The position numbers were made by a program, and so were the translations under genes. The notes beneath the pieces were generated by a model. The model searched no databases. It was not told the origin of the DNA and saw only the letters and a list, made by a program, of their open reading frames with translations. From assembly GCA_964016885.1 (NCBI GenBank), contig OZ024742.1, positions 249,860,001 to 249,924,000 of the forward strand: a stretch of DNA of 64,000 nucleotides. Reading direction: 5' to 3'. Below are positions 15,495 to 59,816 of this stretch, piece by piece. Origin of the DNA: Eledone cirrhosa (taxonomy: Eukaryota). Numbering within the stretch: the stretch's first letter is position 1; every line of letters begins with the position of its first letter.

Positions 15495-15512
15495 ATTATT
15501 AAATATAATAAT

Positions 15513-15699
15513 TGTTTATACTTTTGGCACAAAGCCAGCAATGACCCAGTGCATTACTGGTACTTTATTTCATCGACACCGTGAGGATGAAAGGCAAAGT
15601 TAACCTCGGCGGGATTTGAACTCAGAATGGCAAGGGACGTAACTCTATGCGTCAAAGCATGGCGTCCGACCCTCTACCGATACTGCCAATCCACCACCC
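15513..15699 (-). mobile_element. tRNA-derived SINE with 12-bp TSD, tail-to-tail with the previous copy
   Basis: Family sequence on -; TSD AAATATAATAAT at 15501-15512 and 15700-15711. Confidence 0.88.
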
Positions 15700-16421: not shown

Positions 16422-16435
16422 ATATATATATATAT

Positions 16436-17431: not shown

Positions 17432-17434
17432 ACT

Positions 17435-17516
<82 letters not shown>

Positions 17517-24786: not shown

Positions 24787-24987
24787 AATGCACTGGGTAA
24801 TTGCTGGCCTTGTGCCTAAAGTAGAAACAGTTATTGTATATCCAATTTCCAGCATAGTTACGTCCCTTTACTATCTGAGTTCAAATCCCGCCGAGGTTGA
24901 CTTTGCCTTTCATCCTTACGGGGTCGATAAAATAAAGTACCAGTAATGCACTGGGTAATTGCTGGCCTTGTGCCTAAAGTAGAAACA
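24787..24987 (+). mobile_element. Two 5'-truncated SINE copies in tandem
   Basis: SINE tail plus flank (60 bp) repeated at 24787-24846 and 24945-25004. Confidence 0.8.
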
Positions 24988-25232
24988 GTTATTGTATATC
25001 CAATATGGTTGTGTAACGTGGACTAATATTCTTTTATTTTTTCAGTCTTTAGACTGGAGCCATACTAAAGCACCCCCTCGAAGAGATTTAACTAATAAGA
25101 TCGATCCTGGGACGTTTTTTTTTTATTTCGCATCTTTGGTACTTATTCTATCGATCTCTGTTCGTCATACTGCCCAGTTATGAGACATAAACAGAGATCA
25201 GGCACAAAAGTAAACATACATATACACACACA

Positions 25233-25835: not shown

Positions 25836-25998
25836 TAGAAGGTCGGACTCCATGCTTTCCAGCATAGTTACGTCCCTTTACGGTCTGAGTTCAAATCCCG
25901 CCAAGGTTAACTTTGCCTTTCATCCTTATGGCGTAGATAAAATAAAGTACCAGTAATGCACTGAGTAATTGCTGGCATTGTGCCAAAAGTAGAAACAA
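25836..25998 (+). mobile_element. tRNA-derived SINE
   Basis: B box GAGTTCAAATCC, family body, tail TTGTGCCAAAAGTAGAAACA followed by ATTATT. Confidence 0.85.
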
Positions 25999-26820
25999 TT
26001 ATTAATAATTATCAATTAATTCTATCGTGCAATTCCTGTGCGTGAACATTTTTTTTTAAGTCAGGAAAGAGTGGGCACTGAGCCAATCCCACTCTCTGAG
26101 CGACAGTAGTTATATCCCAAAAAGAGCCGCAGGTTTTATCGGAGTTATCTTAGTTTCCTGAGTTGCTTAATCCTAGTAGAATGCCCTGACAAAAGGTTCC
26201 TTCAATGCTAGTGGATTAACCGCGCGATGGGGTATCCAGCCTGACTATTTCTATGTCCCCGCGCATATACATATACATGCATACATGTATATACATATTT
26301 ACACATTGTTGGATGGCCGTTAACTCTTATAAGTACTTCCGCCATTTGTCAGGGTTTTTTTTTTATCCTGCAGAGTGTTCAAAATCACCTTCCTCACCAA
26401 GTAAACTTGGTGGGTCTGCATGTTTAGTCGCCGACGACCCGGCCAAGCGAGAGGTCGTACTGGGTTACGTGTTACCACTAGCACCCAAGAGTGACCCGAC
26501 ATTATATATATATATATATATATATACATTTATATATATAGTGTCTGCAGATCTATCGATTCCAAGTTAGGGCTGATCACAATCGATCAAACTTTGAGCT
26601 AACTGACCGCGAAAAGATATAATCATGTTATACTGATACATCAAAATGCTTCACCGCATTTCCACAATTCCGTCAACCAGATTTCTTTCACAAAACATTG
26701 CTCAACGTGAGGTCCTAGTAGAAGCTTGTCCCAGGCACTACACTAGGGAACTGAATCTGAATTGAACTTCTTATTAACGGTGTCATGTCTTTCTCAAATA
26801 CAATATATTATATGTTGATT

Positions 26821-27299: not shown

Positions 27300-27301
<2 letters not shown>

Positions 27302-29572: not shown

Positions 29573-29851
29573 AATAACAATAACAATAATGATTTCTTTA
29601 TTAACCACAAGGGTTTACATAAAGTAGACATTAAGGACAGTGCAGGACAATGCAGGACGGTACAAATGGGCATTTCTGCGTGTAAAAAACAAAAACAGAG
29701 GATGTAACAAAAATAACAATGAAAATAACAATGAAAAATTCCCCAATAGGGGGGAGACTTCGGAGGGACATTTGTGGAGAAAGCCCAGTAAAAAGCCACA
29801 ATGACCCTGACCACCAAGGCAAGTGCCCTCTCCCAGTTTTCCACCTTTAAT

Positions 29852-32800
29852 TTACAGATATATACTCAGAGTAGGCCCATTCACTCGGGCCATTCTTGCT
29901 TCTCTCACCCATCTTTCAACAAAATGCTGGGAAGAGAGCACTTCCCTCTCTACTCTGATTTTCCTTTTCAAATGAAATTTGAAAAAGTCAATCAGAGCAT
30001 CACCGAAGAGGTAAGTGCTCGTCTTCAGCCCTTTCAAACGTGTCCACAATACTATCTCTTTCGCCATGGCCACCAGACAGATAAAAACAGCCTGCCCTTC
30101 CCGGCTAAAGGAGGAGGGCGGGGCAATCCTCACGATGGACTCAGATGATAGCCGGATCCGTCCTAAACGTGACAGCAGGTGTTCGACATAAACCCACAAG
30201 TCAGCAATTTTCGGACACTGGACGAGTGCGTGCAGGACGGTTTCGTCGCCCTGCGCGCATCTCGGACATGCCCGGCTGACGGCACCTCCATGCCTGTAGA
30301 GTTTATCCCGAACTGGCAAGGCTCCTCGGTAGCACTGCCAGGCCAGAGATTTCTGGAAGTTGTCCATAGGCCCCGGCCCGAAAGTTCTTCCGAAGAGATT
30401 GGCTAGTTGATTTTCGTCGACGCCTAGAGTTTCCCCAAGTACGTCGTCGCTCTTACCCTCCACTAATCCTTTATAGAACGCCGAGGTGGAGTTTCCACCG
30501 ATCACATTGCCCGATTGGTCGAGGGCTGTGAGCGCCTGAAGACATTCCAGTCTCCAGGCGCTCCCTCTCGGTCTTCGCTTGACCCAGGACTGCAGCTCCG
30601 TCAAGGAAACGAGCTGGGGAAAAACGCGTCTAGCAAACGGCGACCACACCTGATCACCGTCGAGGAAGAGGTGGAGATGTCGTAGCCTGAGCGCGTGCCT
30701 GCGCATCATCAGCCACGGCATGCCCAGCCCTCCACGTAGCGGGTGTTGACAACAGATGGACCGCCTGACCATCGGAGCACGTCCCTTCCACAAAAAGCGA
30801 AAGAGCAAACGCTCCAGCGCAGTCAGGCGAGGCTTAGGACAAGGTACGACGGTCAGGCGGTAGCAGATGACAGACGCGATGTACGCGTTAGCCACCTCCG
30901 CTCGACCTTTCAGGGATAGCTTCCTCTCCGCCCATTTCTGGGTGAGAGAAGCCACCCTGCTCGTCACCTCGTCCCAGTTTTTGTCCGTCTGGAGGTCCGG
31001 ACCGAAGCAGACCCCTAGCAATTTAACCGGTCCGTCTGTCCAGCGTCCGACGACGCTGTTGGACGGCATGGACCTGCCTCTCCAGGTGCCGAGCTGCAGG
31101 CCCACTGACTTTTCCTGGTTGATCATTGCTCCTGTCACCGCTTCGTATTCTCTTAATGTAGTGCCGATCGCCTCGATGTGTTTGGCGTTCGACACCACTA
31201 CGGTGACATCGTCCGCATATGCTGACACGGATCTTCCGCATCCTAGTTCGCGCGGGACTCCCCTCAACGTCTCCAGTTTGTGCAGTAATGGCTCGAGAGT
31301 CAATACGTACAAGAGGGACGAGAGGGGACATCCTTGGCGGACCGAGCGCATGATGTTGAACGGTTCCGACAGGTGACCGTTCACTCTCACCACAGAGCAG
31401 ATGTCGCTGTGCATGGCAGCGATCCAGCCTCTGAAGACGGGCCCAAAGCCAGCCGCCCTCAGGACTGCCGCTAGGTAACGATGGTCGACCCTATCGAAAG
31501 CTTTCGACTGATCTAAATTGATCAAGGACCCACCCGTGCCAGGTTCCCTAGCTACCCTCTCTACAATGTATCGCATGGGGTGGAGGTTGTCGTGGATGGA
31601 TCTGTCGGGAATGGCGCATGTCTGCGCCTCTCCCACCAGACCACCAACGACAAGCGCCAACCTCTTTGCTAGCACCTTGGCCAAAATCTTAAACTCTGTG
31701 TTTAGCAGAGTTATGGGCCGGAAATTTTGTATGTTATCCCCCTTGTTCGGATCCTTTCTCAGCAGTGCCACCGCTCCTCGGCTCACAGAACTGGGAATTC
31801 TCCCGTTCTGTTGCCAGTTGCAGTAGACGTCCGCCAAGAGGCCTCCGAACAAGGCTGGCATCTGTACGTAAAGTTTATAGGGCAGACCATCCAAACCAGG
31901 CGATTTACCCCTTGTGCAGCCAGTCATTGCCTCCCTTACTTCAGCGGCTGTTATCGGCTTTTCGCAACACTTCGCCTCAGTGGCCGAGAGCCGCGGCAGT
32001 CCGTCGAGGTAGACACTAAAGTCCATCCCTCTACCCGGCCCCCCGCTGCCCCCGAACAGCTGAGCGAAATGTCGCTGAAAAGCTTCACACATTTTCCCGG
32101 GATCGAGTAGCATGCGCCCGTCGTGGTCCACCAAAGACCGGATCGTGGCTTTGTTGCCACGACGCGCCTCCGCCACGCGGGCCCATTGAACGGCTTTCGT
32201 CCCCTCGTGTCTGAGAGCACGCACCCTAGCTCTGACAACGCAGCCTTCGTGCGTTGCATTGAAGAATTGGTCAAGGGCCAATTTCGCCGCAAGCACGTCG
32301 GTCGCAATGCCTTTGCTAAGCGCCTCGTCTAATTTTCTAACTAGTTCTCCCTCTGCTCTATTTTTCTCTATTGCTAAAGCCTTACTAAACCTAATCGATT
32401 CTATTCTATTCGCTCTTTTCAGAGCAAACCACCACTTGTTGTTGACGATGGCCCCCGTCAACGCCCGCTTAACTAGTTCGCTAACCCGGTCTCTGTAGGC
32501 CTTGCGCGCTGGTAAGGACGCGTTTAGCTTCCAGTAGCCGGGTCCTCGTCTATGAAGCCTATCTAAGTCAAGCACACAGGTCACGAATTTGTGGTCCGTG
32601 TAGCTGACTATCTTGAATTGTGGACAGCCTATGCTAGACCTATCTATTTCCCTACAAAATACTCTATCTAGATATGATCTGGATGACCCTATGCGGTTTG
32701 TCCAAGTCCACATTGGCACATTCGGGAAATCCAATCGGTACCTGTCAGACAGTTCAAAACGCCTGAGCAGGTTGGTGAGGCTCTTGCACCCTCCACCCCT

Positions 32801-33270
32801 ATCCGCTAATCCCACACAGTCCCAGCGTGCATCTAAGATCCCGTTCCAGTCGCCCACTAACACTAAAGAGCGGGACGTTCCAAGAAAGGTCTCCAGACGC
32901 CGGAAGAAATCAGGCCGCCCTGCTCCTGTCGGGGCATAGACGGCCACTAGCCTGAAAGCTTGCCCGTCTCCGCTGGTCACGTCCAGCACCACCAGCTTAC
33001 CCTCTGGGTCCAGGAAGATGGCCCGTATGGCGATCCAAACCTCTCCGAAAAAGCACAGCAACTCCTCCACCCGATCCAGGACGGCTGGGAGATGCGTACA
33101 CATCGTAGCCGCCGAAGATCGGTGCGAAGGCCCGTGCTTCGGAGATTCTGGTCTCGCTGATGGCCACTACATCTATGTTTAGTGACCTGAGGTCGTTGAG
33201 CAGGTGACCCTGCTTCCATGACGACCCCAAGCCACGCGCATTTATGCTGCCTATTCTGAGTGAGGTCATG
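29852..33270 (-). pseudogene. Copy A ORF2 (APE + RT), one 2-bp frameshift near 33030
   Basis: Matches copy C ORF2; GCGATCC versus GCGAGATCC breaks the APE N-terminus. Confidence 0.85.
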
Positions 33271-33304
33271 TTTAAAATAGAGTGGAAAAGATGGAAAAGA
33301 CCAC

Positions 33305-35400
33305 TTACCGTACTTTTGGTAGGAGGGATGGTTTTTACATCCCCTTTCACTTGATCGTCTGGTGAAGGGACCGTTGAATCGTCCCTTCGGCTGGTCGTCG
33401 GCTCTTCTAAGAGAATGTCTGAATATACTCTTCGATTGATGGTTCCTCCTAGGTCCCTGAAATCACCAACTGCGTTGGGGAATTTCGTTTTAATGTTTGT
33501 GTATTGTTTCTGTGCTATTTTTAGCAGTCTTATGTTAGTTGGCGTTTTGATTGGTGCTGGTATTATGTAGTCCTGTTGTGAAATGTCTGTGTGTTCAATT
33601 ATGTAAGTCATTAGTTTCTTGTTGTGTGTGTTTATTGCCGTGCATTTGTTTTTCTGGGGGTGGGGTGTGGTTCTGCTATTTTCTTGTCGTTGTTGCTGGG
33701 TGTGTGTGTTTTGTTGTTGTGTTTGCGATGTTGGTGCTTGTGGTGGTGGTGTTGAAGGTGTTGTTGGCGGTGGGGTTGTCGCCGATGGTGATGGTGGTGC
33801 TGGTGTGGGTGGTGATGGTGTTGGTGGTGTTGCTGCTGTGGGTCTCTTTGCAGTAGACTTTACCCTTTTCTCATTTCTTTCCTCCCTTTTCAAAGGCGAC
33901 GATGCGCTGCTTCTGCGTTTGTGCCTTCTTGCGACCTTTTGCCATCCCTCTCCCACCTCACACTCCATGTCTGATTCTGTGAGGTCGGGGAGGGGTAGCA
34001 GCTCCACTCTTTCACTTGTTGTTGTTGGTGATGTTTGCACTGGAGTCTCTGTTGCAGCTGCATTTGGTATTGCTGTTGTTGTTGTTAATATTTCCACTGC
34101 TGCTGCTGTTTTTGATTTCCGTGGAGTGGGTATGGGTGCCACGGACCTATCGTTCCTGGTTGCCGCTTGTCCTGTTGCTGGTAGCCGTGGAGCCGGATTC
34201 GGAAGGAGGGGGGTTTTCTCCTTTCTCAGGGTCTTCTCGTTGCAGAAGGCCCTGAGGTGAGTCTTCGATCCACAGCGAAAGCATTTCGGGCGTTTGCCCT
34301 CAACACTTATGGGCAGTTGAGTGCCGTTATCGAAGTCTATCACATCCGGGATAGCTTCGATGCACTCCTGGTTGGTTTGGATTAGCATCTCAATGGAGGA
34401 GCCGACCCAATCTTCTCTTACTTTTTTCTGTACTTGCAGTACAGTTGTTTTGTCCTCGATTCCGACGAGGACAGACGCGGCCAACCAAGAAGGGGTCATT
34501 CCGGGGGGGGACGTGGGTCAGTTTGACCCTCACAATTTTTTGCCCGCAGTAGGAGGGCACCAACACCATTTCCTCGCTCCTTAGGGTCACTACTGATTGG
34601 GCCTTTGCCTCCTGGGGTGTGGCAAAAAGTACGTCTACGGTGGCATATTTTTTGCCTCGGGTGATGTGCGTTTTCCGCTGCCACACAGACCCCAAGGCTT
34701 TTTGTATTTGGGCCTCTGTTGCTCTTTCCACCCTACGGGATTTTGTACTTACTGTACGGTACGTGACCGTACAGTGCTCTTGGGTTTCGAAAAATGTTTC
34801 CGCTGCCTTGCAGATTGCTCGGTGTCCGTTCTTTGTCACCATCTTCTTCGCTTCCTCTAATTCCTCATTCGTTATGAGGATTGTTTCCAAGTTTTTCGCA
34901 ATACCTGCAAATGAGATTGGTTTTTCTCTGCTGTTGTTGTTGTCGTCAGAGCTGCTGGTACTTTTGTTGTTGCTGCAGGTACTACGACTACTGCCTCCGC
35001 CGCTGTTGCTGTGGTTGTTGTTGGTGTTGCTGCTGCTAATGCTGTTGTTGTTTATGCTGCTGGTGATGCTGTTGCGACTGCTACTGTTGTTTTCATTGTC
35101 ACTGTTGCTGTTGTTATTACGGCTGCTACTGCTATTATTCCTGACGTCAGACGAATGAACTGGGTTTTCGTATTTCCCGCACACCTGTTTCGTCGCTGTC
35201 GTCGTCGTCGTGGAGAAACCTTGCACGCTTTGCACGAGACTTTTCATTTCTTTCGTCACTTGCGAAAGAGAAGGGAGGGGGAGAGACACATTTAAAGAAG
35301 GGAGGGAGAGAGACAATCTTCTCTCTGCTGTAGTGATGATTGAAGAAGAAGAAGACGGAATGAGTGGGAGTGACGTATGAAATTTCTTTTTCGTAGCCAT
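33305..35400 (-). pseudogene. Copy A ORF1 (CCHC knuckle), frameshift in the G-run near 34505
   Basis: Split across the 336-aa and 500-aa ORFs; CFRCGSKTHLRAFC. Confidence 0.8.
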
Positions 35401-35615
35401 GTTGTTTTTTGTTTAAAATGAAATTTTGGGTACAAAACCCCAATAACTGGTTATTTAACCCCGAAGGGCCAAATAACGGACAGAAAGACCCCTCTCACGA
35501 GGAGGAGGGTGTCTTTATCAACAATTTGGTTCAAGTTTTAAACAATTTACAATTGTTTTAACGGTTAAAAATTACTATACCTTACAGAGCCGAGCCTCCG
35601 TCAACCATGGCATTC

Positions 35616-35633
35616 AATAATAATAATAATAAT
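35616..35633 (+). repeat. (AAT)6 spacer between copies A and B
   Basis: Direct reading. Confidence 0.95.
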
Positions 35634-35894
35634 GATTTCTTTATTAACCACAAGGGTTTACATAAAGTAGACATTAAGGACAGTGTAGGTCAATGCAGGA
35701 CGGTACAAATGGGCATTTCTGCGTGTAAAAAACAAAAACAGAGGATGTAACAAAAATAACAATGAAAATAACAATGAAAAATTCCCCAATAGGGGGGAGA
35801 CTTCGGAGGGACATTTGTGGAGAAAGCCCAGTAAAAAGCCACAATGACCCTGACCACCAAGGCAAGTGCCCTCTCCCAGTTTTCCACCTTTAAT

Positions 35895-38800
35895 TTACAG
35901 ATATATACTCAGAGTAGGCCCATTCACTCGGGCCATTCTTGCTTCTCTCACCCATCTTTCAACAAAATGCTGGGAAGAGAGCACTTCCCTCTCTACTCTG
36001 ATTTTCCTTTTCAAATGAAATTTGAAAAAGTCAATCAGAGCATCACCGAAGGGGTAAGTGCTCGTCTTCAGCCCTTTCAAACGTGTCCACCATACTATCT
36101 CTTTCGCCATGGCCACCAGACAGATAAAAACTGCCTGCCCTTCCCGGCTAAAGGAGGAGGGCGGGGCAATCCTCACGATGGACTCAGATGATAGCCGGAT
36201 CCGTCCTAAACGCGACAGCAGGTGTTCGACATAAACCCACAAGTCAGCAATTTTCGGACACTGGACGAGTGCGTGCAGGACGGTTTCGTCGCCCTGCGCG
36301 CATCTCGGACATGCCCGGCTGACGGCACCTCCATGCCTGTAGAGTTTATCCCGAACTGGCAAGGCTCCTCGGTAGCACTGCCAGGCCAGAGATTTCTGGA
36401 AGTTGTCCATAGGCCCCGGCCCGAAAGTTCTTCCGAAGAGATTGGCTAGTTGATTTTCGTCGACGCCTAGAGTTTCCCCAAGTACGTCGTCGCTCTTACC
36501 CTCCACTAATCCTCTATAGAACGCCGAGGTGGAGTTTCCACCGATCACATTGCCCGATGGTCGAGGGCTGTGAGCGCCTGAAGACATTCCAGTCTCAGGG
36601 CGCTCCCTCTCGGTCTTCGCTTGACCCAGGACTGCAGCTCCGTCAAGGAAACGAGCTGGGGAAATACGCGCCTAGCAAACGGCGACCACACCTGATCACC
36701 GTCGAGGAAGAGGTAGAGATGTCGTAGCCTGAGCGCGTGCCTGCGCATCATCAGCCACGGCATGCCCAGCCCTCCACGTAGCGGGTGTTGACAACAGATG
36801 GACCGCCTGACCATCGGAGCACGTCCCTTCCACAAAAAGCGAAAGAGCAAACGCTCCAGCGCAGTCAGGCGAGGCTTAGGACAAGGTACGACGGTTAGGC
36901 GGTAGCAGATGACAGACGCGATGTACACGTTAGCCCCCTCCGCTCGACCTTTCAGGGATAGCTTCCTCTCCGCCCATTTCTGGGTGAGAGAAGCCACCCT
37001 GCTCGTCACCTCGTCCCAGTTTTTGTCCGTCTGGAGGTCCGGACCGAACCAGACCCCTAACAATTTAACCGGTCCGTCCGTCCAGCGTCCGACGACGCTG
37101 TTGGACGGCATGGACCTGCCTCTCCAGGTGCCGAGCTGCAGGCCCACTGACTTTTCCTGGTTGATCATTGCTCCTGTCACCGCTTCGTATTCTCTTAGTG
37201 TAGTGCCGATCGCCTCGATGTGTTTGGCGTTCGACACCACTACGGTGACATCGTCCGCATATGCTGACACGGATCTTCCGCATCCTAGTTCGCGCCTGAC
37301 TCCCCTCAACGTCTCCAGTTTGTGCAGTAATGGCTCGAGAGTCAATACGTACAAGAGGGACGAGAGGCGACATCCTTGGCGGACCGAGCGCATGATGTTG
37401 AACGGTACAGACAGGTGACCGTTGACTCTCACCACAGAGCAGATGTCGCTGTGCATGGCAGCGATCCAGCCTCTGAAGACGGGCCCAAAGCCAGCCGCCC
37501 TCAGGACTGCCGCTAGGTAACGATGGTCGACCCTATCGAAAGCTTTTGACTGATCTAAATTGATCAAGGACCCACCCGTGCCAGGTTCCTTAGCTACCCT
37601 CTCTATGATGTATCGCATGAGGTGGAGGTTGTCGTGGATGGATCTGTCGGGAATGGCGCATGTCTGCGCCTCTCCCACCAGACCACCAACGACAAGCGCC
37701 AACCTCTTTGCTAGCACCTTGGCCAAAATCTTGAACTCAGAGTTATGGGCCGGAAATTATCTATGTTATCCCCCTTGTTCGGATCCTTTCTCAGCAGTGC
37801 CACCGCTCCTCGGCTCACAGAACTGGGAATTCTCCCGTTCTGTTGCCAGTTGCAGTAGACGTCCGCCAAGAGGCCTCCGAACAAGTCTGGCATCTGTACG
37901 TAAAGTTCATAGGGCAGACCATCCAAACCAGGCGATTTACCCATTGTGCAGCCAGTCATTGCCTCCCTTACTTCAGCGGCTGTTATCGGCTTTTCGCAAC
38001 ACTTCGCCTCAGTGGCCGAGAGCCGCGGCAGTCCGTCGAGGTAGACACTAAAGTCCATCCCTCTACCCGGCCCACCGCTGCCCCCGAACAGCTGAGCGAA
38101 TTGTCGCTGAAAAGCTTCACACATTTTCCCGGGATCGAGTAGCATGCGCCCGTCGTGGTCCACCAAAGACAGGATCGTGGATTTGTTGCCACGACGCGCC
38201 TCCGCCACTCGGGCCCATTGAACGGCTTTCGTCCCCTTGTGTCTGAGAGCACGCACCCTTGCTCTGACAACGCAGCCTTCGTGCTTTGCATTGAAGAATT
38301 GGTCAAGGGCCAATTTCGCCGCAAGCACGTCGGTCGCAATGCCTTTGCTAAGCGCCTCGTCTAATTTTCTAACTAGTTCTCCCTCTACTCTATTTTTCTC
38401 TATTGCTAAAGCCTTACTAAACCTAATCGATTCTATTCTAATCGCTCTTTTCAGAGCAAACCACCACTTGTTGTTGACGATGGGCCCCGTCAACGCCCGC
38501 TTAACTAGTTCGCTAATCCGGTCTCTGTAGGCCTTGCGCGCTGGTAAGGACGCGTTTAGCTTCCAGTAGCCGGGTCCTCGTCTATGAAGCCTATCTAAGT
38601 CAAGCACACAGATCACGAATTTGTGGTCCGTGTAGCTGACTATCTTGAATTGTGGACAGCCTATGCTAGACCTATCTATTTCCCTACAAAATACTCTATC
38701 TAGATATGATCTGGATGACCCTATGCGGTTTGTCCAAGTCCACATTGGCACATTCGGGAAATCCAATCGGTACCTGTCAGACAGTTCAAAACGCCTGAGC

Positions 38801-39303
38801 AGGTTGGTGAGGCTCTTGCACCCTCCACCCCTATCCGCTAATCCCACACAGTCCCAGCGTGCATCTAAGATCCCGTTCCAGTCGCCCACTAACACTAAAG
38901 AGCGGGACGTTCCAAGAAAGGTCTCCAGACGCCGGAAGAAATCAGGCCGCCCTGCTCCTGTCGGGGCATAGACGGCCACTAGCCTGAAAGCTTGCCCGTC
39001 TCCGCTGGTCACGTCCAGCACCACCAGCTTACCCTCTGGGTCCAGGAAGATGGCCCGTATGGCGAGATCCAAACCTCTCCGAAAAAGCACAGCAACTCCT
39101 CCACCCGATCCAGGACGGCTGGGAGATGCGTACACATCGTAGCCGCCGAAGATCGGTGCTAAGGCCCGTGCTTCGGAGATTCTGGTCTCGCTGATGGCCA
39201 CTACATCTATGTTTAGTGACCTGAGGTCGTTGAGCAGGTGACCCTGCTTCCATGACGACCCCAAGCCACGCGCATTTATGCTGCCTATTCTGAGTGAGGT
39301 CAT
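35895..39303 (-). pseudogene. Copy B ORF2 with two frameshifts
   Basis: 10-bp deletion near 37737 and 1-bp deletion near 36558 relative to copy C. Confidence 0.85.
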
Positions 39304-39338
39304 GTTTAAAATAGAGTAGAAAAGATGGGAAAGACCAC

Positions 39339-41045
39339 TTACCGTACTTTTGGTAGAGGAGGGATGGTTTTTACATCCCTTTTCACTTGATCGTCTGGTG
39401 AAGGGACCGTTGAATCGTCCCTTCGGCTGGTCGTCGGCTCTTCTAAGAGAATGTCTGAATATACTCTTCGATTGATGGTTCCTCCTAGGTCCCTGAAATC
39501 ACCAACTGCGTTGGGGAATTTCGTTTTAATGTTTGTGTATTGTTTCTGTGCTATTTTTAGCAGTCTTATGTTAGTTGGCGTTTTGATTGGTGCTGGTATT
39601 ATGTAGTCCTGTTGTGAAATGTCTGTGTGTTCAATTATGTAAGTCATTAGTTTCTTGTTGTGTGTATTTATTGCCGTGCATTTGTTTTTCTGGGGGTGGG
39701 GTGTGGTTCTGCTATTTTCTTGTCGTTGTTGCTGGGTGTGTGTGTTTTGTTGTTGTGTTTGCGATGTTGGTGCTTGTGGTGGTGGTGTTGAAGGTGTTGT
39801 TGGCGGTGGGGTTGTCGCCGGTGGTGATGGTGGTGCTAGTGTGGGTGGTGATGGTGTTGGTGGTGTTGCTGCTGTGGGTCTCTTTGCAGTAGACTTTACC
39901 CTTTTCTAATTTCTTTCCTCCCTTTTCAAAGGCGACGATGCGCTGCTTCTGCGTTTGTGCCTTCTTACGACCTTTTGCCATCCCTCTCCCACCTCACACT
40001 TCATGTCTGATTCTGTGAGGTCGGGGAGGGGTACCAGCTCCACTCTTTCACTAGTTCTTGTTGGTGATTTTTTACAGTGGAGTCTCTGTTGCAGCTGCGG
40101 TTGGTATTACTGTTGTTGTTGCTAATAATTCCACAGGACCTAGCCTTCCTGCTTGCCGCCTGTCCTGTTGCTGGTAGCAGTAGAGCCGGTTTCGATAGGA
40201 GAGGGGGTTCTCCTTTCTCAGGGTCTTCTCATTGCAGAAGGCCCTGAGGTGAGTCTTCGACCCACAGCTAAAGCATTTCAGGCGTTTGCCCTCAACACTT
40301 ATGTGAAGTTGAATGCCGTTATCGAAGTCTATCACATCTGGGATAGCTTCGATGCACTCCTGGTTGGTTTGAATTAACATCTCAGTGGAGGCGCCGACCC
40401 AGTCTTCTCGTACTTATTTCTGTACTGGCACTACGGTTGTTTTGTCCTCGATTCCGACGAGGACAGACGCGGCCAGCCAAGAAGGGGCCATCCGGGGGGG
40501 GGGGGGGGACTTGGGTCAGTTTGAACCTCACAATTTTTTGCCCGCAGTAGGAGGGCACCAACACCATTTCCTCGCTCCTTAGGGTCACTAAGGATTGAGC
40601 CTTTGCCTCCTGGGGTGTGACAAAAAGCACATCCATGGTGGCATATTTCTTGCCTCTGGTGATATGCGTATTCCGCTGCCACACAGACCCTAAGGCTTTT
40701 TGTATTTGAGCCTCTGTGGATCTTTCAACCCTACGTGATTTTGTGCTTACTGTACGGTACGTGACCGTACAGTGCTGTTGGGTTTCGAAAAATTCCGCGG
40801 CTGCCTCGCAGATTGCTCGGTGTCCGGTTTTCGTCACCATCTTCTTTGCTTCCTGTAATTCCTCATTTGTTATAAGGATGGTTTCCAGGTTATTTGCGAT
40901 ACCTGCAAACCAGATTGGTTTTTCTTTCTTGTTGTTGTTGTTGTCGTCAGAGCTGCTGTTACTTTTGTTGTGGCTGCTGGTATTACGACCACCGCCGCCG
41001 CTGTTGCTGTTGTTGTTGTTGTTGCTGGTGTTTCTGCTGTTGTTG

Positions 41046-41081
<36 letters not shown>

Positions 41082-41467
41082 TTGTTGCTGTTGCTGCTGC
41101 TGATGTTGTTGCGGCTGCTACTAGTATTTTTCTCGCCAATGTTGCTGCTGGTACTGTTATTACGGCTGCTGCTGCTATTCTTCATGAAGTCAGACGAATG
41201 AAATGGCTTTCCGTATTTACCGCACACATCTTTCGTCGTCGTGGAGAAATGTTTCACGGCACGCGCGTTCTCTTGATGAAGAACACTATGAGAAACTACA
41301 TTTTTCTTTTTCTTTAATGTTGCCGCTTGCGAAAGAGGCGACAGAGGCGACACCACATTTAGAGAAGGGAGGGAGAGAAACAATATTTTCTCTGACGTAA
41401 TGACGATTGAGGAAGAAGAAGACGGAAGGAGTGGGAGTGACTTGTGAACATTCTTTTTTGTGGCCAC
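39339..41467 (-). pseudogene. Copy B ORF1, fragmented
   Basis: Pieces of 361, 102 and 102 aa homologous to ORF1 of A and C; CFSCGSKTHLRAFC. Confidence 0.8.
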
Positions 41468-41683
41468 ATTTTTTTTTACGGTTTAAAATGAATATTGGCC
41501 ACAAATCCCCAATAACTGGTTATTTAACCCCGAAGGGCCAAATAACGGGCAGAAAGACCCCTCTCACGGTGAGGAGGGTGTCTCTATCTACAATTTAGTT
41601 CAAGTTTTAAACAATTTATAATTGTTATAACGGTTAAAAATTATAATACCTTACAGAGCGGAGCCGCCGTCGATATGGCATTC

Positions 41684-41725
41684 AATAATAATAATAATAA
41701 TAATGATAATAATAATAATAATAAT
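41684..41725 (+). repeat. (AAT)7 GAT (AAT)6 spacer between copies B and C
   Basis: Direct reading. Confidence 0.95.
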
Positions 41726-41988
41726 GATTTCTTTATTAACCACAAGGGTTTACATAAAGTAGACATTAAGGACAGTGCAGGACAATGCAGGACGGTACAA
41801 ATGGGCATTTCTGCGTGTAAAAAAAACAAAAACAGAGGATGTAACAAAAATAACAATGAAAATAACAATGAAAAATTCCCCAATAGGGGGGAGACTTCGG
41901 AGGGACATTTGTGGAGAAAGCCCAGTAAAAAGCCACAATGACCCTGACCACCAAGGCAAGTGCCCTCTCCCAGTTTTCCACCTTTAGT

Positions 41989-44900
41989 TTACAGATATAT
42001 ACTCAGAGTCGGCCCATTCACTCGGGCCATTCTTGCTTCTCTCACCCATCTTTCAACAAAATGCTGGGAAGAGAGCACTTCCTTCTCTACTCTGATTTTC
42101 CTTTTCAAATGAAATTTGAAAAAGTCAATCAGAGCATCACCGAAGAGGTAAGTGCTCGTCTTCAGCCCTTTCAAACGTGTCCACCATACTATCTCTTTCG
42201 CCATGGCCACCAGACAGATAAAAACTGCCTGCCCTTCCCGGCTAAAGGAGGAGGGCGGGGCAATCCTCACGATAGACTCAGATGATAGCTGGATCCGTCC
42301 TAAACGCGACAGCAGGTGTTCGACATAAACCCACAAGTCAGCAATTTTCGGACACTGGACGAGTGCGTGCAGGACGGTTTCGTCGCCCTGCGCGCATCTC
42401 GGACATGCCCGGCTGACGGCACCTCCATGCCTGTAGAGTTTATCCCGAACTGGCAAGGCTCCTCGGTAGCACTGCCAGGCCAGAGATTTCTGGAAGTTGT
42501 CCATAGGCCCTGGCCCGAAAGTTCTTCCGAAGAGATTGGCTAGTTGATTTTCGTCGACGCCTAGAGTTTCCCCAAGTACGTCGTCGCTCTTCCCCTCCAC
42601 TAATCCTCTATAGAACGCCGAGGTGGAGTTTCCACCGATCACATTGCCCGATTGGTCGAGGGCTGTGAGCGCCTGAAGACATTCCAGTCTCCAGGCGCTC
42701 CCTCTCGGTCTTCGCTTGACCCAGGACTGCAGCTCCGTCAAGGAAACGAGCTGGGGAAAAACGCGTCTAGCAAACGGCGACCACACCTGATCACCGTCGA
42801 GGAAGAGGTGGAGATGTCGTAGCCTGAGCGCGTGCCTGCGCATCATCAGCCACGGCATGCCCAGCCCTCCACGTAGCGGGTGTTGACAACAGATGGACCG
42901 CCTGACCATCGGAGCACGTCCCTTCCACAAAAAGCGAAAGAGCAAACGCTCCAGCGCAGTCAGGCGAGGCTTAGGACAAGGTACGACGGTTAGGCGGTAG
43001 CAGATGACAGACGCGATGTACGCGTTAGCCACCTCCGCTCGACCTTTCAGGGATAGCTTCCTCTCCGCCCATTTCTGGGTGAGAGAAGCCACCCTGCTCG
43101 TCACCTCGTCCCAGTTTTTGTCCGTCTGGAGGTCCGGACCGAACCAGACCCCTAGCAATTTAACCGGTCCGTCCGTCCAGCGCCCGACGACGCTGTTGGA
43201 CGGCATGGACCTGCCTCTCCAGGTGCCGAGCTGCAGGCCCACTGACTTTTCCTGGTTGATCATTGCTCCTGTCACCGCTTCGTATTCTCTTAGTGTAGTG
43301 CCGATCGCCTCGATGTGTTTGGCGTTCGACACCACTACGGTGACATCGTCCGCATATGCTGACACGGATCTTCCGCATCCTAGTTCGCGCGGGACTCCCC
43401 TCAACGTCTCCAGTTTGTGCAGTAATGGCTCGAGAGTCAATACGTACAAGAGGGACGAGAGGGGACATCCTTGGCGGACCGAGCGCATGATGTTGAACGG
43501 TTCCGACAGGTGACCGTTCACTCTCACCACAGAGCAGATGTCGCTGTGCATGGCAGCGATCCAGCCTCTGAAGACGGGCCCAAAGCCAGCCGCCCTCAGG
43601 ACTGCCGCTAGGTAACGATGGTCGACCCTATCGAAAGCTTTCGACTGATCTAAATTGATCAAGGACCCACCCGTGCCAGGTTCCCTAGCTACCCTCTCTA
43701 CGATGTATCGCATGAGGTGGAGGTTGTCGTGGATGGATCTGTCGGGAATGGCGCATGTCTGCGCCTCTCCCACCAGACCACCAACGACAAGCGCCAACCT
43801 CTTTGCTAGCACCTTGGCCAAAATCTTAAACTCTGTGTTTAGCAGAGTTATGGGCCGGAAATTGTCTATGTTATCCCCCTTGTTCGGATCCTTTCTCAGC
43901 AGTGCCACCGCTCCTCGGCTCACAGAACTGGGAATTCTCCCGTTCTGTTGCCAGTTGCAGTAGACGTCCGCCAAGAGGCCTCCGAACAAGTCTGGCATCT
44001 GTACGTAAAGTTCATAGGGCAGACCATCCAAACCAGGCGATTTACCCCTTGTGCAGCCAGTCATTGCCTCCCTTACTTCAGCGGCTGTTATCGGCTTTTC
44101 GCAACACTTCGCCTCAGTGGCCGAGAGCCGCGGCAGTCCGTCGAGGTAGACACTAAAGTCCATCCCTCTACCCGGCCCCCCGCTGCCCCCGAACAGCTGA
44201 GCGAAGTGTCGCTGAAAAGCTTCACACATTTGCCCGGGATCGAGTAGCATGCGCCCGTCGTGGTCCACCAAAGACCGGATCGTGGCTTTGTTGCCACGAC
44301 GCGCCTCCGCCACTCGGGCCCATTGAACGGCTTTCGTCCCCTCGTGTCTGAGAGCACGCACCCTAGCTCTGACAACGCAGCCTTCGTGCTTTGCATTGAA
44401 GAATTGGTCAAGGGCCAATTTCGCCGCAAGCACGTCGGTCGCAATGCCTTTGCTAAGCGCCTCGTCTAATTTTCTAACTAGTTCTCCCTCTGCTCTATTT
44501 TTCTCTATTGCTAAAGCCTTACTAAACCTAATCGATTCTATTCTAATCGCTCTTTTCAGAGCAAACCACCACTTGTTGTTGACGATGGCCCCCGTCAACG
44601 CCCGCTTAACTAGTTCGCTAATCCGGTCTCTGTAGGCCTTGCGCGCTGGTAAGGACGCGTTTAGCTTCCAGTAGCCGGGTCCTCGTCTATGAAGCCTATC
44701 TAAGTCAAGCACACAGATCACGAATTTGTGGTCCGTGTAGCTGACTATCTTGAATTGTGGACAGCCTATGCTAGACCTATCTATTTCCCTACAAAATACT
44801 CTATCTAGATATGATCTGGATGACCCTATGCGGTTTGTCCAAGTCCACATTGGCACATTCGGGAAATCCAATCGGTACCTGTCAGACAGTTCAAAACGCC

Positions 44901-45408
44901 TGAGCAGGTTGGTGAGGCTCTTGCACCCTCCACCCCTATCCGCTAATCCCACACAGTCCCAGCGTGCATCTAAGATCCCGTTCCAGTCGCCCACTAACAC
45001 TAAAGAGCGCGACGTTCCAAGAAAGGTCTCCAGACGCCGGAAGAAATCAGGCCGCCCTGCTCCTGTCGGGGCATAGACGGCCACTAGCCTGAAAGCTTGC
45101 CCGTCTCCGCTGGTCACGTCCAGCACCACCAGCTTACCCTCTGGGTCCAGGAAGATGGCCCGTATGGCGAGATCCAAACCTCTCCGAAAAAGCACAGCAA
45201 CTCCTCCACCCGATCCAGGACGGCTGGGAGATGCGTACACATCGTAGCCGCCGAAGATCGGTGCGAAGGCCCGTGCTTCGGAGATTCTGGTCTCGCTGAT
45301 GGCCACTACATCTATGTTTAGTGACCTGAGGTCGTTGAGCAGGTGACCCTGCTTCCATGACGACCCCAAGCCACGCGCATTTATGCTGCCTATTCTGAGT
45401 GAGGTCAT
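41989..45408 (-). CDS. ORF2: AP-like endonuclease + reverse transcriptase + C-terminal CCHC
   Basis: Intact 1139 aa; SINARGL, ISET, VYAP, GDWN, YLDR, TDH (APE); GKSPGLDG, FRPITLLN, QGCPLS, YADD (RT); CPRC..ET..H...C; GPGYWKLN and GGLG motifs typical of Tx1/L1. Confidence 0.95.
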   Translation of the reverse strand: MTSLRIGSINARGLGSSWKQGHLLNDLRSLNIDVVAISETRISEARAFAPIFGGYDVYASPSRPGSGGGVAVLFRRGLDLAIRAIFLDPEGKLVVLDVTSGDGQAFRLVAVYAPTGAGRPDFFRRLETFLGTSRSLVLVGDWNGILDARWDCVGLADRGGGCKSLTNLLRRFELSDRYRLDFPNVPMWTWTNRIGSSRSYLDRVFCREIDRSSIGCPQFKIVSYTDHKFVICVLDLDRLHRRGPGYWKLNASLPARKAYRDRISELVKRALTGAIVNNKWWFALKRAIRIESIRFSKALAIEKNRAEGELVRKLDEALSKGIATDVLAAKLALDQFFNAKHEGCVVRARVRALRHEGTKAVQWARVAEARRGNKATIRSLVDHDGRMLLDPGQMCEAFQRHFAQLFGGSGGPGRGMDFSVYLDGLPRLSATEAKCCEKPITAAEVREAMTGCTRGKSPGLDGLPYELYVQMPDLFGGLLADVYCNWQQNGRIPSSVSRGAVALLRKDPNKGDNIDNFRPITLLNTEFKILAKVLAKRLALVVGGLVGEAQTCAIPDRSIHDNLHLMRYIVERVAREPGTGGSLINLDQSKAFDRVDHRYLAAVLRAAGFGPVFRGWIAAMHSDICSVVRVNGHLSEPFNIMRSVRQGCPLSSLLYVLTLEPLLHKLETLRGVPRELGCGRSVSAYADDVTVVVSNAKHIEAIGTTLREYEAVTGAMINQEKSVGLQLGTWRGRSMPSNSVVGRWTDGPVKLLGVWFGPDLQTDKNWDEVTSRVASLTQKWAERKLSLKGRAEVANAYIASVICYRLTVVPCPKPRLTALERLLFRFLWKGRAPMVRRSICCQHPLRGGLGMPWLMMRRHALRLRHLHLFLDGDQVWSPFARRVFPQLVSLTELQSWVKRRPRGSAWRLECLQALTALDQSGNVIGGNSTSAFYRGLVEGKSDDVLGETLGVDENQLANLFGRTFGPGPMDNFQKSLAWQCYRGALPVRDKLYRHGGAVSRACPRCAQGDETVLHALVQCPKIADLWVYVEHLLSRLGRIQLSSESIVRIAPPSSFSREGQAVFICLVAMAKEIVWWTRLKGLKTSTYLFGDALIDFFKFHLKRKIRVEKEVLSSQHFVERWVREARMARVNGPTLSIYL

Positions 45409-45443
45409 GTTTAAAATAGAGTGGAAAAGATGGGAAAGACCAC

Positions 45444-47544
45444 TTACCGTATTTTTGGTAGAGGAGGGATGGTTTTTACATCCCTTTTCACTTGATCGTC
45501 TGGTGAAGGGACCGTTGAATCGTCCCTTCGGCTGGTCGTCGGCTCTTCTAAGAGAATGTCTGAATATACTCTTCGATTAATGGTTCCTCCTAGGTCCCTG
45601 AAATCACCAACTGCGTTGGGGAATTTCGTTTTAATGTTTGTGTATTGTTTCTGTTCTATTTTTAGCAGTCTTATGTTAGTTGGCGTTTTGATTGGTGCTG
45701 GTATTATGTAGTCCTGTTGTGAAATGTCTGTGTGTTCAATTATGTAAGTCATTAGTTTCTTGTTGTGTGTGTTTATTGCCGTGCATTTGTTTTTCTGGGG
45801 GTGGGGTGTGGTTCTGCTATTTTCTTGTCGTTGTTGCTGGGTGTGTGTGTTTTGTTGTTGTGTTTGCGATGTTGGTGCTTGTGGTGGTGGTGTTGAAGGT
45901 GTTGTTGGCGGTGGGGGTTGTCGCCGGTGGTGATGGTGGTGCTGGTGTGGGTGGTGATGGTGTTGGTGGTGTTGCTGCTGTGGGTCTCTTTGCAGTAGAC
46001 TTTACCCTTTTCTCATTTCTTTCCTCCCTTTTCAAAGGCGACGATGCGCTGCTTCTGCGTTTGTGCCTTCTTGAGACCTTTTGCCATCCCTCTCCCACCT
46101 CACACTCCATGTCTGATTCTGTAAGGTCGGGGAGGGGTACCAGCTCCACTCTTTCACTTGTTGTTGTTGGTGATGTTTGCACTGGAGTCTCTGTTGCAGC
46201 TGCATTTGGTATTGCTGTTGTTGTTGTTAATATTTCCACTGCTGCTGCTGTCTTTGATTTCCGTGGAGTGGGTATGGGTGCCACGGACCTATCGTTCCTG
46301 GTTGCCGCTTGTCCTGTTGCTGGTAGCCGTGGAACCGGATTCGGGAGGAGGGGGGTTTTCTCCTTTCTCAGGGTCTTCTCGTTGCAGAAGGCCCTGAGGT
46401 GAGTCTTCGATCCACAGCGAAAGCATTTCGGGCGTTTGCCCTCAACACTTATGGGCAGTTGAGTGCCGTTATCGAAGTCTATCACATCCGGGATAGCTTC
46501 GATGCACTCCTGGTTGGTTTGGATTAGCATCTCAATGGAGGAGCCGACCCAATCTTCTCTTACTTTTTTCTGTACTTGCAGTACAGTTGTTTTGTCCTCG
46601 ATTCCGACGAGGACAGACGCGGCCAGCCAAGAAGGGGTCATTCCGGGGGGGACGTGGGTCAGTTTGACCCTCACAATTTTTTGCCCGCAGTAGGAGGGCA
46701 CCAACACCATTTCCTCGCTCCTTAGGGTCACTACTGATTGGGCCTTTGCCTCCTGGGGTGTGGCAAAAAGTACGTCTACGGTGGCGTATTTTTTGCCTCG
46801 GGTGATGTGCGTTTTCCTCTGCCACACAGACCCCAAGGCTTTTTGTATTTGGGCCTCTGTGGCTCTTTCCACCCTACGGGATTTTGTACTTACTGTACGG
46901 TACGTGACCGTACAGTGCTCTTGGGTTTCGAAAAAATTTTTCGCTGCCTTGCAGATTGCTCGGTGTCCGTTCTTTGTCACCATCTTCTTCGCTTCCTCTA
47001 ATTCCTCATTTGTTATGAGGATTGTTTCCAGGTTTTTCGCAATACCTGCAAATGAGATTGGTTTTTCTCTGCTGTTGTTGTTGTCGTCAGAGCTGCTGGT
47101 ACTTTTGTTGTTGCTGCAGGTACTACGACTACTGCCTCCGCCGCTGTTGCTGTGGTTGTTGTTGGTGTTGCTGCTGCTAATGCTGTTGTTGTTTATGCTG
47201 CTGGTGATGCTGTTGCGGCTGCTACTGTTGTTTTCATTGTCACTGTTGCTGTTGTTATTACGGCTGCTACTGCTATTATTCCTGACGTCAGACGAATGAA
47301 CTGGGTTTTCGTATTTCCCGCACACCTGTTTCGTCGCTGTCGTCGTCGTCGTGGAGAAACCTTGCACGCTTTGCACGAGACTTTTCTTTTCTTTCGTCGC
47401 TTGCGAAAGAGAAGGTAGGGAGAGAGACACATTTAAAGAAGGGAGGGAGAGAGACAATCTTCTCTCTCCTGTAGTGATGATTGAGGAAGAAGAAGACGGA
47501 ATGAGTGGGAGTGACGTATGAAATTTTTTTTTTTTGGTAGCCAT
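45444..47544 (-). CDS. ORF1, gag-like with one CCHC zinc knuckle (~700 aa; one +1 frameshift in a G-run near 45915)
   Basis: MATKKK start, Asn/Ser-rich tract, C-X2-C-X4-H-X4-C, basic patch, Thr/Pro-rich region; C-terminal part in the 45444-45752 frame. Confidence 0.8.
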
Positions 47545-47784
47545 GTTTTTTTGTTTAAAATGAAATTTTGGGTACAAAACCCCAATAACTGGCTATTTAA
47601 CCCCGAAGGGCCAAATAACGGACAGAAAGACCCCTCTCACGAGGAGGAGGGTGTCTTTATCAACAATTTGGTTCAAGTTTTAAACAATTTACAATTGTTT
47701 TAACGGTTAAAAATTACTATACCTTACAGAGCCGAGCCTCCGTCAACCATGGCATTCAATAATAATAATAATAATAATAATAAT

Positions 47785-47994
47785 TCATTCTACTATAAGC
47801 ACAAGGACAGCAATTTTGGGTCGGGGAAAATTAAATCAACCCCAGTGCAATGCTGGTGCTTTATTTATCAACCCCGCAAATTTGAAAGGCAAAATTAAAC
47901 TCGGCGAAATTTGAACTCAGAACGTAAAGGGACACAACTCTAAGTTGCAAAGCATTTGGTCCGATGCTCTACCGATACTGTCAATTCACCACCC
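47785..47994 (-). mobile_element. Older tRNA-derived SINE whose tail abuts the (AAT)9 flank of copy C
   Basis: Family head, B box GAGTTCAAATT, tail CCTTGTGCTTATAGTAGAATGA(ATT)n. Confidence 0.8.
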
Positions 47995-48013
47995 TCATCA
48001 ACCGCAAAATAAT

Positions 48014-48170
48014 GATTTCTAGTATAGGCACAAGGCAATGCTGGTGCTTTATTTCTCGACACCATAAATTTGAAGAGTTAAGCTAACCTCGGCGGAATTT
48101 AAATTCTTAACGTAAATGGTCGTAACACTATGCCACAAATCATGTTGTCCGACGCTCTACCGATATTACC
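48014..48170 (-). mobile_element. Second tandem SINE copy
   Basis: Tail CCTTGTGCCTATACTAGAAATC ATTATT; family body. Confidence 0.75.
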
Positions 48171-48288
48171 AATAATAATTATTATTATACTAATATTACA
48201 ATTGTATACATATATATAGATATGTGTGTGTGTGTGTGTGCATGTTTGTGTGTGTCTGTGTGTGTGTGTGTGTGCCTCTGTGTGTGTG

Positions 48289-48970
48289 TGTATTGTAATT
48301 TCGTATTTCTAAAGAAATACGGTATGTTTATATGTAAACATTTAGAAAGCCATAGTTATGCAAAACCCCGAGGCTATCGCCCCCTGTAGGTGTCCAGCAG
48401 AAGCAAGTGGGGGGGGGGGGGTAACAATCGTCGATGCATTTTGAACTTAACTCGTTTCCATATCAGGACTATCCTTCCCACTCTTGCGACTGCTGGACTT
48501 GAAACTTGAAAACAGGCGGCAAAACTACGGCTTTCTAATTTTTTACCTATAAACACACCGTATTTCTTTAGAAATACGAATTTACAATACATATCTGTAT
48601 ACAGCTATACATGAAGCTAAATCCTAGTTCTATTCTATTATAAGTTGAGCCAACTTATGCAGTTCATATGCAAATGAGATTAATCACCTCATTTTACACA
48701 GACGAATATATACCATAAATTCTCGCCTGTTTTCAAGTCCAGCAGTCGCAAGTGGGAGAGATCGTCCTGATGAGAAACCACTTAAGTTCGAAATGCATCA
48801 ACGATTGTCCCCGTTGCTTCAGCTGAACACCACCAGAGTTTGATAGCTCCGGTGTTTTGCATAGCTACGGCTTTCTAAATGTTTACCCATAAACATACCG
48901 TATTTCTTTATAAATACGAAATTACAATATATATCTGTATACAGTTATGCATGAAGCAAAATCCAAGTTC

Positions 48971-48975
<5 letters not shown>
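48289..48975 (+). mobile_element. Small hammerhead-containing element (~340-bp monomer, terminal direct repeat, inverted 5' block)
   Basis: Direct repeat ~48519-48641 / 48859-48975; 48289-48518 is an inverted copy of ~48724-48930; hammerhead at 48761-48805. Confidence 0.7.
48761..48805 (+). ncRNA. Type I minimal hammerhead ribozyme motif
   Basis: ATCGTC CTGATGA GAA...TTC GAAA TGCA TC AACGAT; the inverted copy has GACGAT, which restores the first stem I pair. Confidence 0.7.
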
Positions 48976-49030
<55 letters not shown>

Positions 49031-49269: not shown

Positions 49270-50207
49270 TGTACACATGTATGTGTGTGTACACATGTAT
49301 ATGTGTGTGTTTGTGTGTGTATATATATATATTAGTACTTTAATCCTTCCTTTGGTTTAGAGTGTTGTAGTTGTATTATTGTTGGAGAATTGCCATGCCA
49401 TTCGGTTGTTTAGAATTCACTTTACGTACTGCAAAGTTTGGAATTTACCTGGTTGTTGCTGTTGTTGGGGTGGTGGTGATGTTGTCGGTGTGCTGTTGGT
49501 GAATGAGGATGTGGGAGTTGAGGAAAGTAATATATGATGGAACTGTAACTACTTAATCAGTTCTCTTGGGGTAATTAATACGATCTAATATTTTAGCGAC
49601 ATCCACTTCCTTCTCGATTCTTGTTTAAAAAAAAAAAATGGTGAATGCTGGAAGAACTTAAAGAAAGATAGAATGTTTACATTTTTACATTTGCACAGAG
49701 GTATATGCTTATATATCGGCTCATAATATGGCTTTGGTTGTTGCTGTTAAAACAGATTGAGCAATCAAAGATTACTGCTATGTGACATTTCTGAGCGGTG
49801 GACTAGCACAATTGGTTGCTGTATATTTTACTGGCTCTTTGCTTTCTCCATTCAAAACACCGAAATCAACTTTACCTTCCATCATTTCGACAATCGATGA
49901 AATAAAAATACCAGTCCACGTTAGTGTAGTGGTGGAATTGTTAGATCATCGGACAGTATGCCTTTTGTTTTATGTTCAAATCTCACCGTAGCCTACATGG
50001 AACGTAGATTTTATTATTAAAGCTGCCCTTATATTGTGTCTTTTCAGATCTCCTCTTTCTCCCACCAGTTACGTAGACAAATGTCCTTTCTCTTAAACTA
50101 AATAGTAAAGAGGAACACGTATAAAACGCAATATCATTGCCTCTATTCGACATTAACATTACCTTTAAAGCTGTAGTACATATACATACATTTACTTACA
50201 AAATAAT

Positions 50208-50375
50208 TGTTTCTACGTTTGACACAAGGCCAGCAATACCCAGTGATTACTGGTACTTTATGTTATCGACCCCGTAAGGATGAAAGGCAAAGTTAACCTC
50301 TGCGGGATTTGACCGTAAAGGGACGTAACTATGTTGGAAAGCATGTCCGACCCTCTACCAATACTGCCAATTAAC
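50208..50375 (-). mobile_element. tRNA-derived SINE with 9-bp TSD
   Basis: Family sequence; CAAAATAAT at 50199-50207 and 50376-50384. Confidence 0.8.
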
Positions 50376-50777
50376 CAAAATAATGTATACATGCTCATCT
50401 TTACATGATCATACATTTATCTGACGGTATGTAGCATAATACACACACATGCGTGTATATAACATAAGAACGTACATATAATTATGAAACATTATGATAG
50501 TACTTATACATATGTACATTATGATACAGACATTTACTTATGTACTTTATAATTTGTATATATAGGTATATAAACAATATATAACTGTGTATTGACAGGA
50601 TATCTATTCGAAACGCCGTATTACAAACGTCAACAAACTTAGTGGAACAATAACACAAACAGGCAAATCCAAACTTTCGTCATTGTTCTATCTGTGTGTG
50701 TTCTTCTAACTAGTCTTTTGACCTTTCTACTGTCTTATTACAGACAAAATGTCTGACGCTAGGTTAGAAAATAACGA

Positions 50778-59377: not shown

Positions 59378-59635
59378 GACTTCCAATTACATTTTACATT
59401 ATATACATGCCTGTGTATATGTTAATTATTTTAAAGTTATTATTTAAATGAACATGACCCAATGGGTCACGGATGGTCTAGTTAACAATAAACTTGAGTT
59501 CAAATCGAAAACAAAGATTAAGGCAAACCCAGAAAATGCGAAAATAAATTGAGGCAACTAATATCAGAACACGCCGTATATTTAATTGAAAGATATAAAA
59601 ATTGACATTCAATTTTATTTAAAAGGCTATATAAT

Positions 59636-59816
59636 TGTTTCTACTTTTGATATAAGGCAAGCAATTAATCAGTGTATTACTGGTACTTTATTTTATCGAC
59701 CCCGTAAGGATGAAAGGCAAAGTTAACCTCGGCGGGATTTGAACTCCGAATGGCAAGGTCCGTAACTCTATGCGTCAAAGCATGGCGCCCTACCCTCTAC
59801 CGATACTGCCAATCCA
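59636..59816 (-). mobile_element. tRNA-derived SINE
   Basis: Family head, B box, body and tail AGTAGAAACAATTAT. Confidence 0.85.

Follow-up and report, generated by a model that had tools for sequence, protein, structure and literature searches.

The repeat at positions 48289-48978 of the window (the whole stretch analysed here, 64,000 nucleotides of Eledone cirrhosa contig OZ024742.1) is one old, damaged member of a dispersed family of non-coding repeats with a 339-bp unit. By its sequence features, the element resembles and, at the family level, can be classed with the metazoan non-LTR retrozymes, with ends of the Penelope-like element (PLE) type. It is very probably a decayed 339-bp non-LTR retrozyme whose reverse transcription and insertion were carried out in trans by a Penelope-like retrotransposon with an endonuclease. 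The features on which this reading is based are as follows, with q denoting positions in the unit.

48289..48518, minus strand: inverted arm, q83-291, 5'-truncated; its 3' end is the 'short' end, without tail
48426..48473, minus strand: hammerhead of the inverted arm, with a broken core (2-nt insertion in CTGATGA; GAAA reads AAAA)
48519..48639, plus strand: partial upstream unit, q219-339, a pseudo-LTR-like direct repeat with its own tail at 48592-48639
48640..48978, plus strand: full 339-bp unit, q1-338, terminating at the 'long' end
48667..48678, plus strand: 12-nt block TATGCAAATGAG, containing the octamer and matching host U6 locus L211 letter for letter at -76
48707..48721, plus strand: TATA-like region, altered in this copy; in the family consensus the TATA lies 43-45 nt past the octamer
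48760..48806, plus strand: type I hammerhead, with stem I at 48760-66/48800-06 and the core CTGATGA at 48767-73
48774-48799, plus strand: remainder of that hammerhead, with stem II at 48774-89, GAAA at 48790-93, a palindromic ATGCAT stem III and a predicted cut after C48799
48860..48918, plus strand: 3' block with two hairpins, common to three related families
48932..48978, plus strand: tail of ~45 nt between the short and long 3' ends, on the forward arm only
48974..49027, no strand: target microsatellite, (TA)n, next to the long end
16433-17440: the 16.4-kb element, which belongs to a family with a 436-bp unit and 5,038 first-look candidates
17046: octamer block of the 16.4-kb element
17135: hammerhead core of the 16.4-kb element, type I, mutated; a second core lies at 16678 on the minus strand

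The window copy consists of an inverted arm, a partial unit and a full unit, flanked by (TG)n, which adjoins the inverted arm, and (TA)n. The [inverted B-A][A-C] x [B-A-C] layout described in the initial annotation could be mapped onto these parts. The inverted arm and the partial unit are joined bluntly at 48518/48519. The direct repeats are 340 bp apart and 88% identical, the inverted arm is 80% identical, and the GC content around the copy is 36%. Two 80-nt contigs from public runs X1 and X3 bridged the inversion junction with one difference; they represent one sample, possibly the assembly's own.

Other repeats were observed in the window. A LINE of ~6.07 kb (endonuclease, RT, zf-RVT) was present three times head to tail on the minus strand at 29573-47784; the copies were 93-99% identical and one had a 1195-aa open frame. 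An RT frame in the opposite orientation lay at 27300-29498. A ~190-bp SINE-like repeat was present in many copies, including one inverted pair (1406-1581, 10181-10400, 15307-15714, 24846-24999, 25836-26023, 47841-48173, 50185-50377 and 59628-59816).

Searches of the host genome (3.0 Gb, microsatellite-rich) with three DNA queries returned 3,066, 978 and 3,486 first-look candidates, which are not copy numbers, and the 32-nt hammerhead motif had 30 exact matches. The 145 loci fetched yielded 120 insertions, and 117 insertions with 164 arms remained after the removal of three segmental duplicates; the queries biased this sample toward good, long matches. Twenty-four loci were left out as overlaps or as an identical duplicate, and the real copies L033 and L154 lie outside the 117. 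The family is old, with a mean divergence from the consensus of 7.5% and a minimum of 3.3%. Its unit lies within the size and composition range of non-LTR retrozymes (non-coding, 150-450 bp, GC under 50%). The three forward frames of the consensus held no long open frame, and the RT/GIY-YIG frame of an autonomous Penelope-like element was found neither in the unit nor attached to it. Four family copies (L044, L048, L159 and L169) had internal deletions, with units of ~304-316 bp, and read depth over q1-60 was very high in runs X1-X3. The deleted copies and the read depth together suggest that a more abundant, shorter relative exists.

Among the 164 arms, 83 had their 3' end at the long site (~q334-339) and 46 at the short site (~q286-301), so that 129 ended at two fixed sites ~45 nt apart; the 5' ends were scattered. 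Inverted head-to-head arms were present in 36 of the 117 insertions, partial tandems in 75 and both in 28 of this query-biased sample. Both ends were canonical in 17 of the 36 inverted pairs; 16 of these combined a long with a short end and one had two long ends (p ~4e-5 against random pairing). Dinucleotide runs adjoined 110 of the 129 canonical ends, a proportion for which the background rate may be high in a microsatellite-rich genome. At the family level, the insertions show the PLE-type marks: they stop at fixed 3' sites, are truncated at the 5' end, include partial tandems and can have an inverted 5' copy, with the tail on one side only. The class proposed in the initial annotation depended on other copies sharing the direct-plus-inverted layout. 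Many of them lack part of it, since the layout is optional, and the class itself was not refuted.

Eighty-two arms crossed the unit junction into the end of the same unit, and 10 reached upstream of the predicted start. Such arms need either a circular template or an uncut transcript of an array outside the sample. The longest arm was a full dimer of 679 nt (L269), with no longer array in the sample. Sixteen of the junction-crossing arms passed back through the upstream cut site, a count from which two further arms that start at this site were taken off; cleavage was thus not obligatory for linear templates. An excess of A-to-G changes on the sense strand, as a scar of RNA editing, was absent (183 versus 223 T-to-C).

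The structure of these insertions is ordinary for PLEs. Partial tandems (the pLTR), an inverted 5'-truncated copy, a tail at one end and microsatellite targets including (TA)n are described for EN+ PLEs (PMC8557442, PMC3846280), as is a hammerhead with a palindromic helix III (PMC4209133). In vitro, a PLE protein is described as nicking both strands of AT-rich DNA and beginning to reverse-transcribe at two internal positions, one on either side of the tail (PMC11167929), a likeness to our two fixed ends. The 339-bp family differs from the EN+ PLEs so described in having no reading frame and in its tail of ~45 nt, compared with 30-40 bp. Of the earlier proposal that retrozyme-like elements share an integration mechanism, the class and the shared mechanism were supported, and the mechanism is not new, because its layout has already been described for Penelope-like elements. 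What our analysis adds is the one-end-per-arm statistic and the U6-type block considered below.

Intact RT plus GIY-YIG open frames of 938 aa and 1096 aa were present elsewhere in the genome (L091 and L093), and by eye they had a Cys cluster ahead of the nuclease similar to the one described for Neptune/Nematis elements (PMC8557442). GIY-YIG first-look candidates numbered 10,597. Among 50 of the at least 150 GIY-YIG loci listed from these candidates, searched with BLAST, tblastn and a 3'/5'-block profile, no autonomous PLE carrying the unit was found; only nested non-coding relatives were recovered. Two nested relatives, followed as a route to the partner, gave two more non-coding families and no ORF.

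Three other accounts of the origin and layout were weighed against insertion in trans. The units could be truncated pseudo-LTR ends of an autonomous PLE, without an independent non-coding life cycle. PLE copies are described as mostly 5'-truncated, with hammerheads in their pLTRs (PMC4209133), and most arms of the 339-bp family are shorter than one and a half units. However, the arms that continue past q1 never run into a common longer sequence or a PLE frame, and we regard this account as very unlikely. Less remote, yet still improbable, is an inverted arm that arose when a single template folded back and primed itself, or through DNA rearrangement at a later time, and not from two primings on the two nicked strands. 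Self-priming has been proposed for PLE inversions with palindromic junctions (PMC3846280), and L033 and L047 are among the few copies here with overlapping palindromic junctions, at the q239-256 hairpin. Against it, the two arms are often of very unequal extent, the inverted one often has sequence that is absent from the adjacent forward arm (q83-218 in the window copy), and the two arms use different fixed ends in 16 of 17 cases. We consider it highly unlikely that a LINE mobilised the family as a SINE with an (AT)n tail, or that the family is a foldback element resembling DNA transposons. LINE-type priming is compatible with truncated 5' ends and a 3' flank of simple repeats, and LINEs occur in the window, but PLEs are marked by two fixed internal ends, by partial tandems and by tails on one side only, and the inverted arm is optional and variable, in contrast to terminal inverted repeats.

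The hammerhead letters noted previously (CTGATGA, GAAA, TGCA and a TC cleavage site) were found in the forward unit. Its stem I begins with an A-C mismatch at the base, and its stem II has gained one nucleotide by insertion. The family consensus contains a type I hammerhead motif with a 7-bp stem I, CTGATGA, a 4-bp stem II with a 7-nt loop, GAAA and the palindrome ATGCAT as stem III, with a predicted cut after C159; its core and stems I and II are intact. The core pattern was kept in 78 of the 119 hammerhead regions covered, of which 30 loci had been chosen by that very motif. Rfam at the gathering threshold gave 0 matches over the whole window, and thermodynamic folding of four copies did not single out the hammerhead (z -1.2 to +1.3). 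Stem III cannot close in a monomer, as is expected for a dimer-type motif; hammerheads with a palindromic stem III are described as active as dimers (PMC4209133). The window copy has one forward hammerhead, not two consecutive ones. At the family level, consecutive hammerheads in tandem were found in the 16 arms that cross the upstream cut site and in the one full dimer.

Four arms started at q158-160, the predicted cut site, where ~1 was expected (p ~0.02), which is a weak sign of cleaved templates. A genome-wide pattern search for copies in which the cut site is the last base before TA returned only one locus; L154 also ends at the cut site, but had been selected by a motif ending on that base. 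L255, initially taken as an arm starting at the cut site, proved to have an internal deletion and was removed from the count. Further hammerhead-like motifs of other families were observed in the window at 25417 (plus strand), 59214 (plus) and 59095 (minus) and 12419 (minus), one of which forms an inverted pair; these are probably other PLE ends.

The 16.4-kb element was considered unrelated in sequence in the initial annotation. BLAST of the window element against it gave no match. The two consensuses are nevertheless colinear, with 148 of 223 aligned bases identical (66%), and their alignment score of 137 was higher than any obtained with 500 block shuffles (maximum 104) or 500 genomic pieces (maximum 99), and was far above the reversed control too. 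The octamer, TATA, hammerhead and 3' hairpins stand in register between them. Judged by these alignments, the 16.4-kb element is a distant homologue with its own hammerhead. The same layout does occur there, the inverted arms of its family mostly starting ~50 nt short of the long end; as the two elements are distantly related, the layout they have in common does not count as independent support for convergence.

A third family is closer to the 339-bp family than the 16.4-kb one, and a fourth has the common 3' block and a consensus without the octamer. Three related families keep the hammerhead helices with different letters, each with a palindromic stem III, and in one related family, with a stem III palindrome of 16 nt, a T-A pair replaces C3-G8. 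The 3' block itself (48860..48918 in the window copy) is a candidate recognition site for the mobilising protein. At L171-L190 we observed a sister family of ~340 bp with TTGATAA replacing CTGATGA and a 16-nt palindromic stem III. A fifth family (L100:783-871, minus strand; L292:210, plus strand) has an octamer ~93 nt ahead of a different hammerhead.

In the 339-bp unit, TATGCAAATGAG stands 98 nt ahead of the hammerhead core. Three host U6 loci (L211, L212, L213) and the best U6atac locus (L302) have this block at -76 to -78 and a TATA at ~-30, with octamers that are exact or have one mismatch. Over the 12 nt the 339-bp family is identical to L211 and the 16.4-kb family to L212, and the TATA-like box, placed as listed above, compares with a spacing of 46-48 nt in the three U6 loci. 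Among 13 U6 loci, an insertion has moved the block in two more array copies, the block of L238 lies at -275, and an exact octamer is missing from seven. Seven of eight U6atac loci lack the block at -76 to -78, and most look like retrocopies. The octamer occurred within 300 bp of none of six U2 loci. The proximal block and the TATA of the host U6-type (type 3 Pol III) promoter are thus both present in the unit; type 3 promoters are read by Pol III. On the strength of these matches the unit probably carries a working U6-type promoter. A distal CCCTT motif of the U2 and U6 promoters resembling q166-180 was rejected as a further promoter part: the stretch belongs to the closing helix of the hammerhead, and two related families lack it.

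The octamer and TATA letters might instead have been kept as RNA structure or as protein-binding RNA, with transcription by Pol II read-through. The octamer is partly paired in a predicted RNA hairpin, two T4 runs within the unit might terminate Pol III transcription, and the octamer-to-TATA spacing, at 42-45 nt, is 3-4 nt shorter than in U6 genes. In addition, the 5' ends cluster at q88-100, 5-15 nt upstream of the start given by U6 spacing (11 versus 3 expected, in an interval picked post hoc). Set against this are the exact match of 12 letters to host U6 blocks in the 339-bp and 16.4-kb families, though these are only about two-thirds identical, the rarity of exact octamers (0.12 per kb across control loci totalling 248 kb), and the constant octamer orientation and hammerhead distance across families (-98, -88, -96). 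On balance, we consider conservation as RNA rather unlikely and favour a U6-type promoter.

The host U6 genes form a tandem array with a period of ~1.8 kb and the U2 genes one of ~2.2 kb (G000:C19:31.78-31.84 Mb; G000:C3:307.35-307.45 Mb), and in some U6 array units a SINE-like insertion parts the promoter block from the start. Promoterless U6/U6atac copies at L237, L241, L242, L303 and L304 start right after (TA)n-rich runs; possibly, these are retrocopies made by the same microsatellite-targeting machinery. A literature search, with subscription journals outside its scope, returned no paper on U6-type promoters in retrozymes and none on cephalopod retrozymes.

Newt satellite 2 (Coats, Zhang and Epstein 1994) is reportedly a hammerhead repeat of ~330 bp with an internal snRNA-type promoter, transcribed by Pol II. 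The block of the 339-bp family differs from such a Pol II-transcribed repeat in matching the host U6/U6atac promoters and not the U2 promoters. As cited in later papers (PMC2220036; PMC6765202), satellite 2 is a precedent for a promoter-bearing hammerhead repeat. The SINE-like hammerhead repeats of schistosomes likewise have a promoter followed by a hammerhead in each unit, a likeness in arrangement; tandems are described as needed for their propagation, and Pol III has been proposed (PMC6765202). The available text of that account does not mention PLE-type ends, unlike those of the 339-bp family.

Metazoan non-LTR retrozymes are described as non-coding, 150-450 bp long, low in GC and equipped with a type I hammerhead, and as occurring in monomers and tandems, all of which applies to the 339-bp family (PMC7229834; bioRxiv 10.64898/2026.07.22.740005). 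The same sources describe the co-occurrence of PLEs with metazoan retrozymes and propose PLEs as the mobiliser. Our family differs in that most of its copies are scattered and truncated at the 5' end, with a maximum length of two units in the sample, and in its two-armed inversions with a tail, which were not met in the available text of these accounts.

A life cycle can be outlined under which these insertions would arise. Tandem copies would be transcribed from the U6-like octamer-plus-TATA block, and two hammerheads would pair via ATGCAT and then cut. Each strand of a (TA)n/(CA)n run would be nicked by the PLE protein, one cDNA would begin at each of the two internal sites, and the two truncated cDNAs would join at their 5' ends. 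The partial tandem may result from copying past the unit junction, either round a circle or along an uncut multimer. More tentatively, and with less than even confidence, we suggest that the families form a 340-440-bp retrozyme superfamily that has internalised a host U6-type promoter, in which each tandem unit transcribes the next, self-cuts into a unit-length RNA circle and is rewritten into microsatellites by a Penelope RT in two priming events on the circle, each at its own fixed site.

So far, the sources available have connected animal retrozymes with Penelope elements through co-occurrence and sequence similarity (PMC7229834; 10.64898/2026.07.22.740005). The insertion ends of the 339-bp family offer a mechanistic footprint, with two fixed start sites, one per arm. 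The U6-like block is a concrete, testable answer to how protein-free repeats may be transcribed. If the superfamily reading is true, these elements would be self-transcribing, PLE-dependent circular-RNA parasites.
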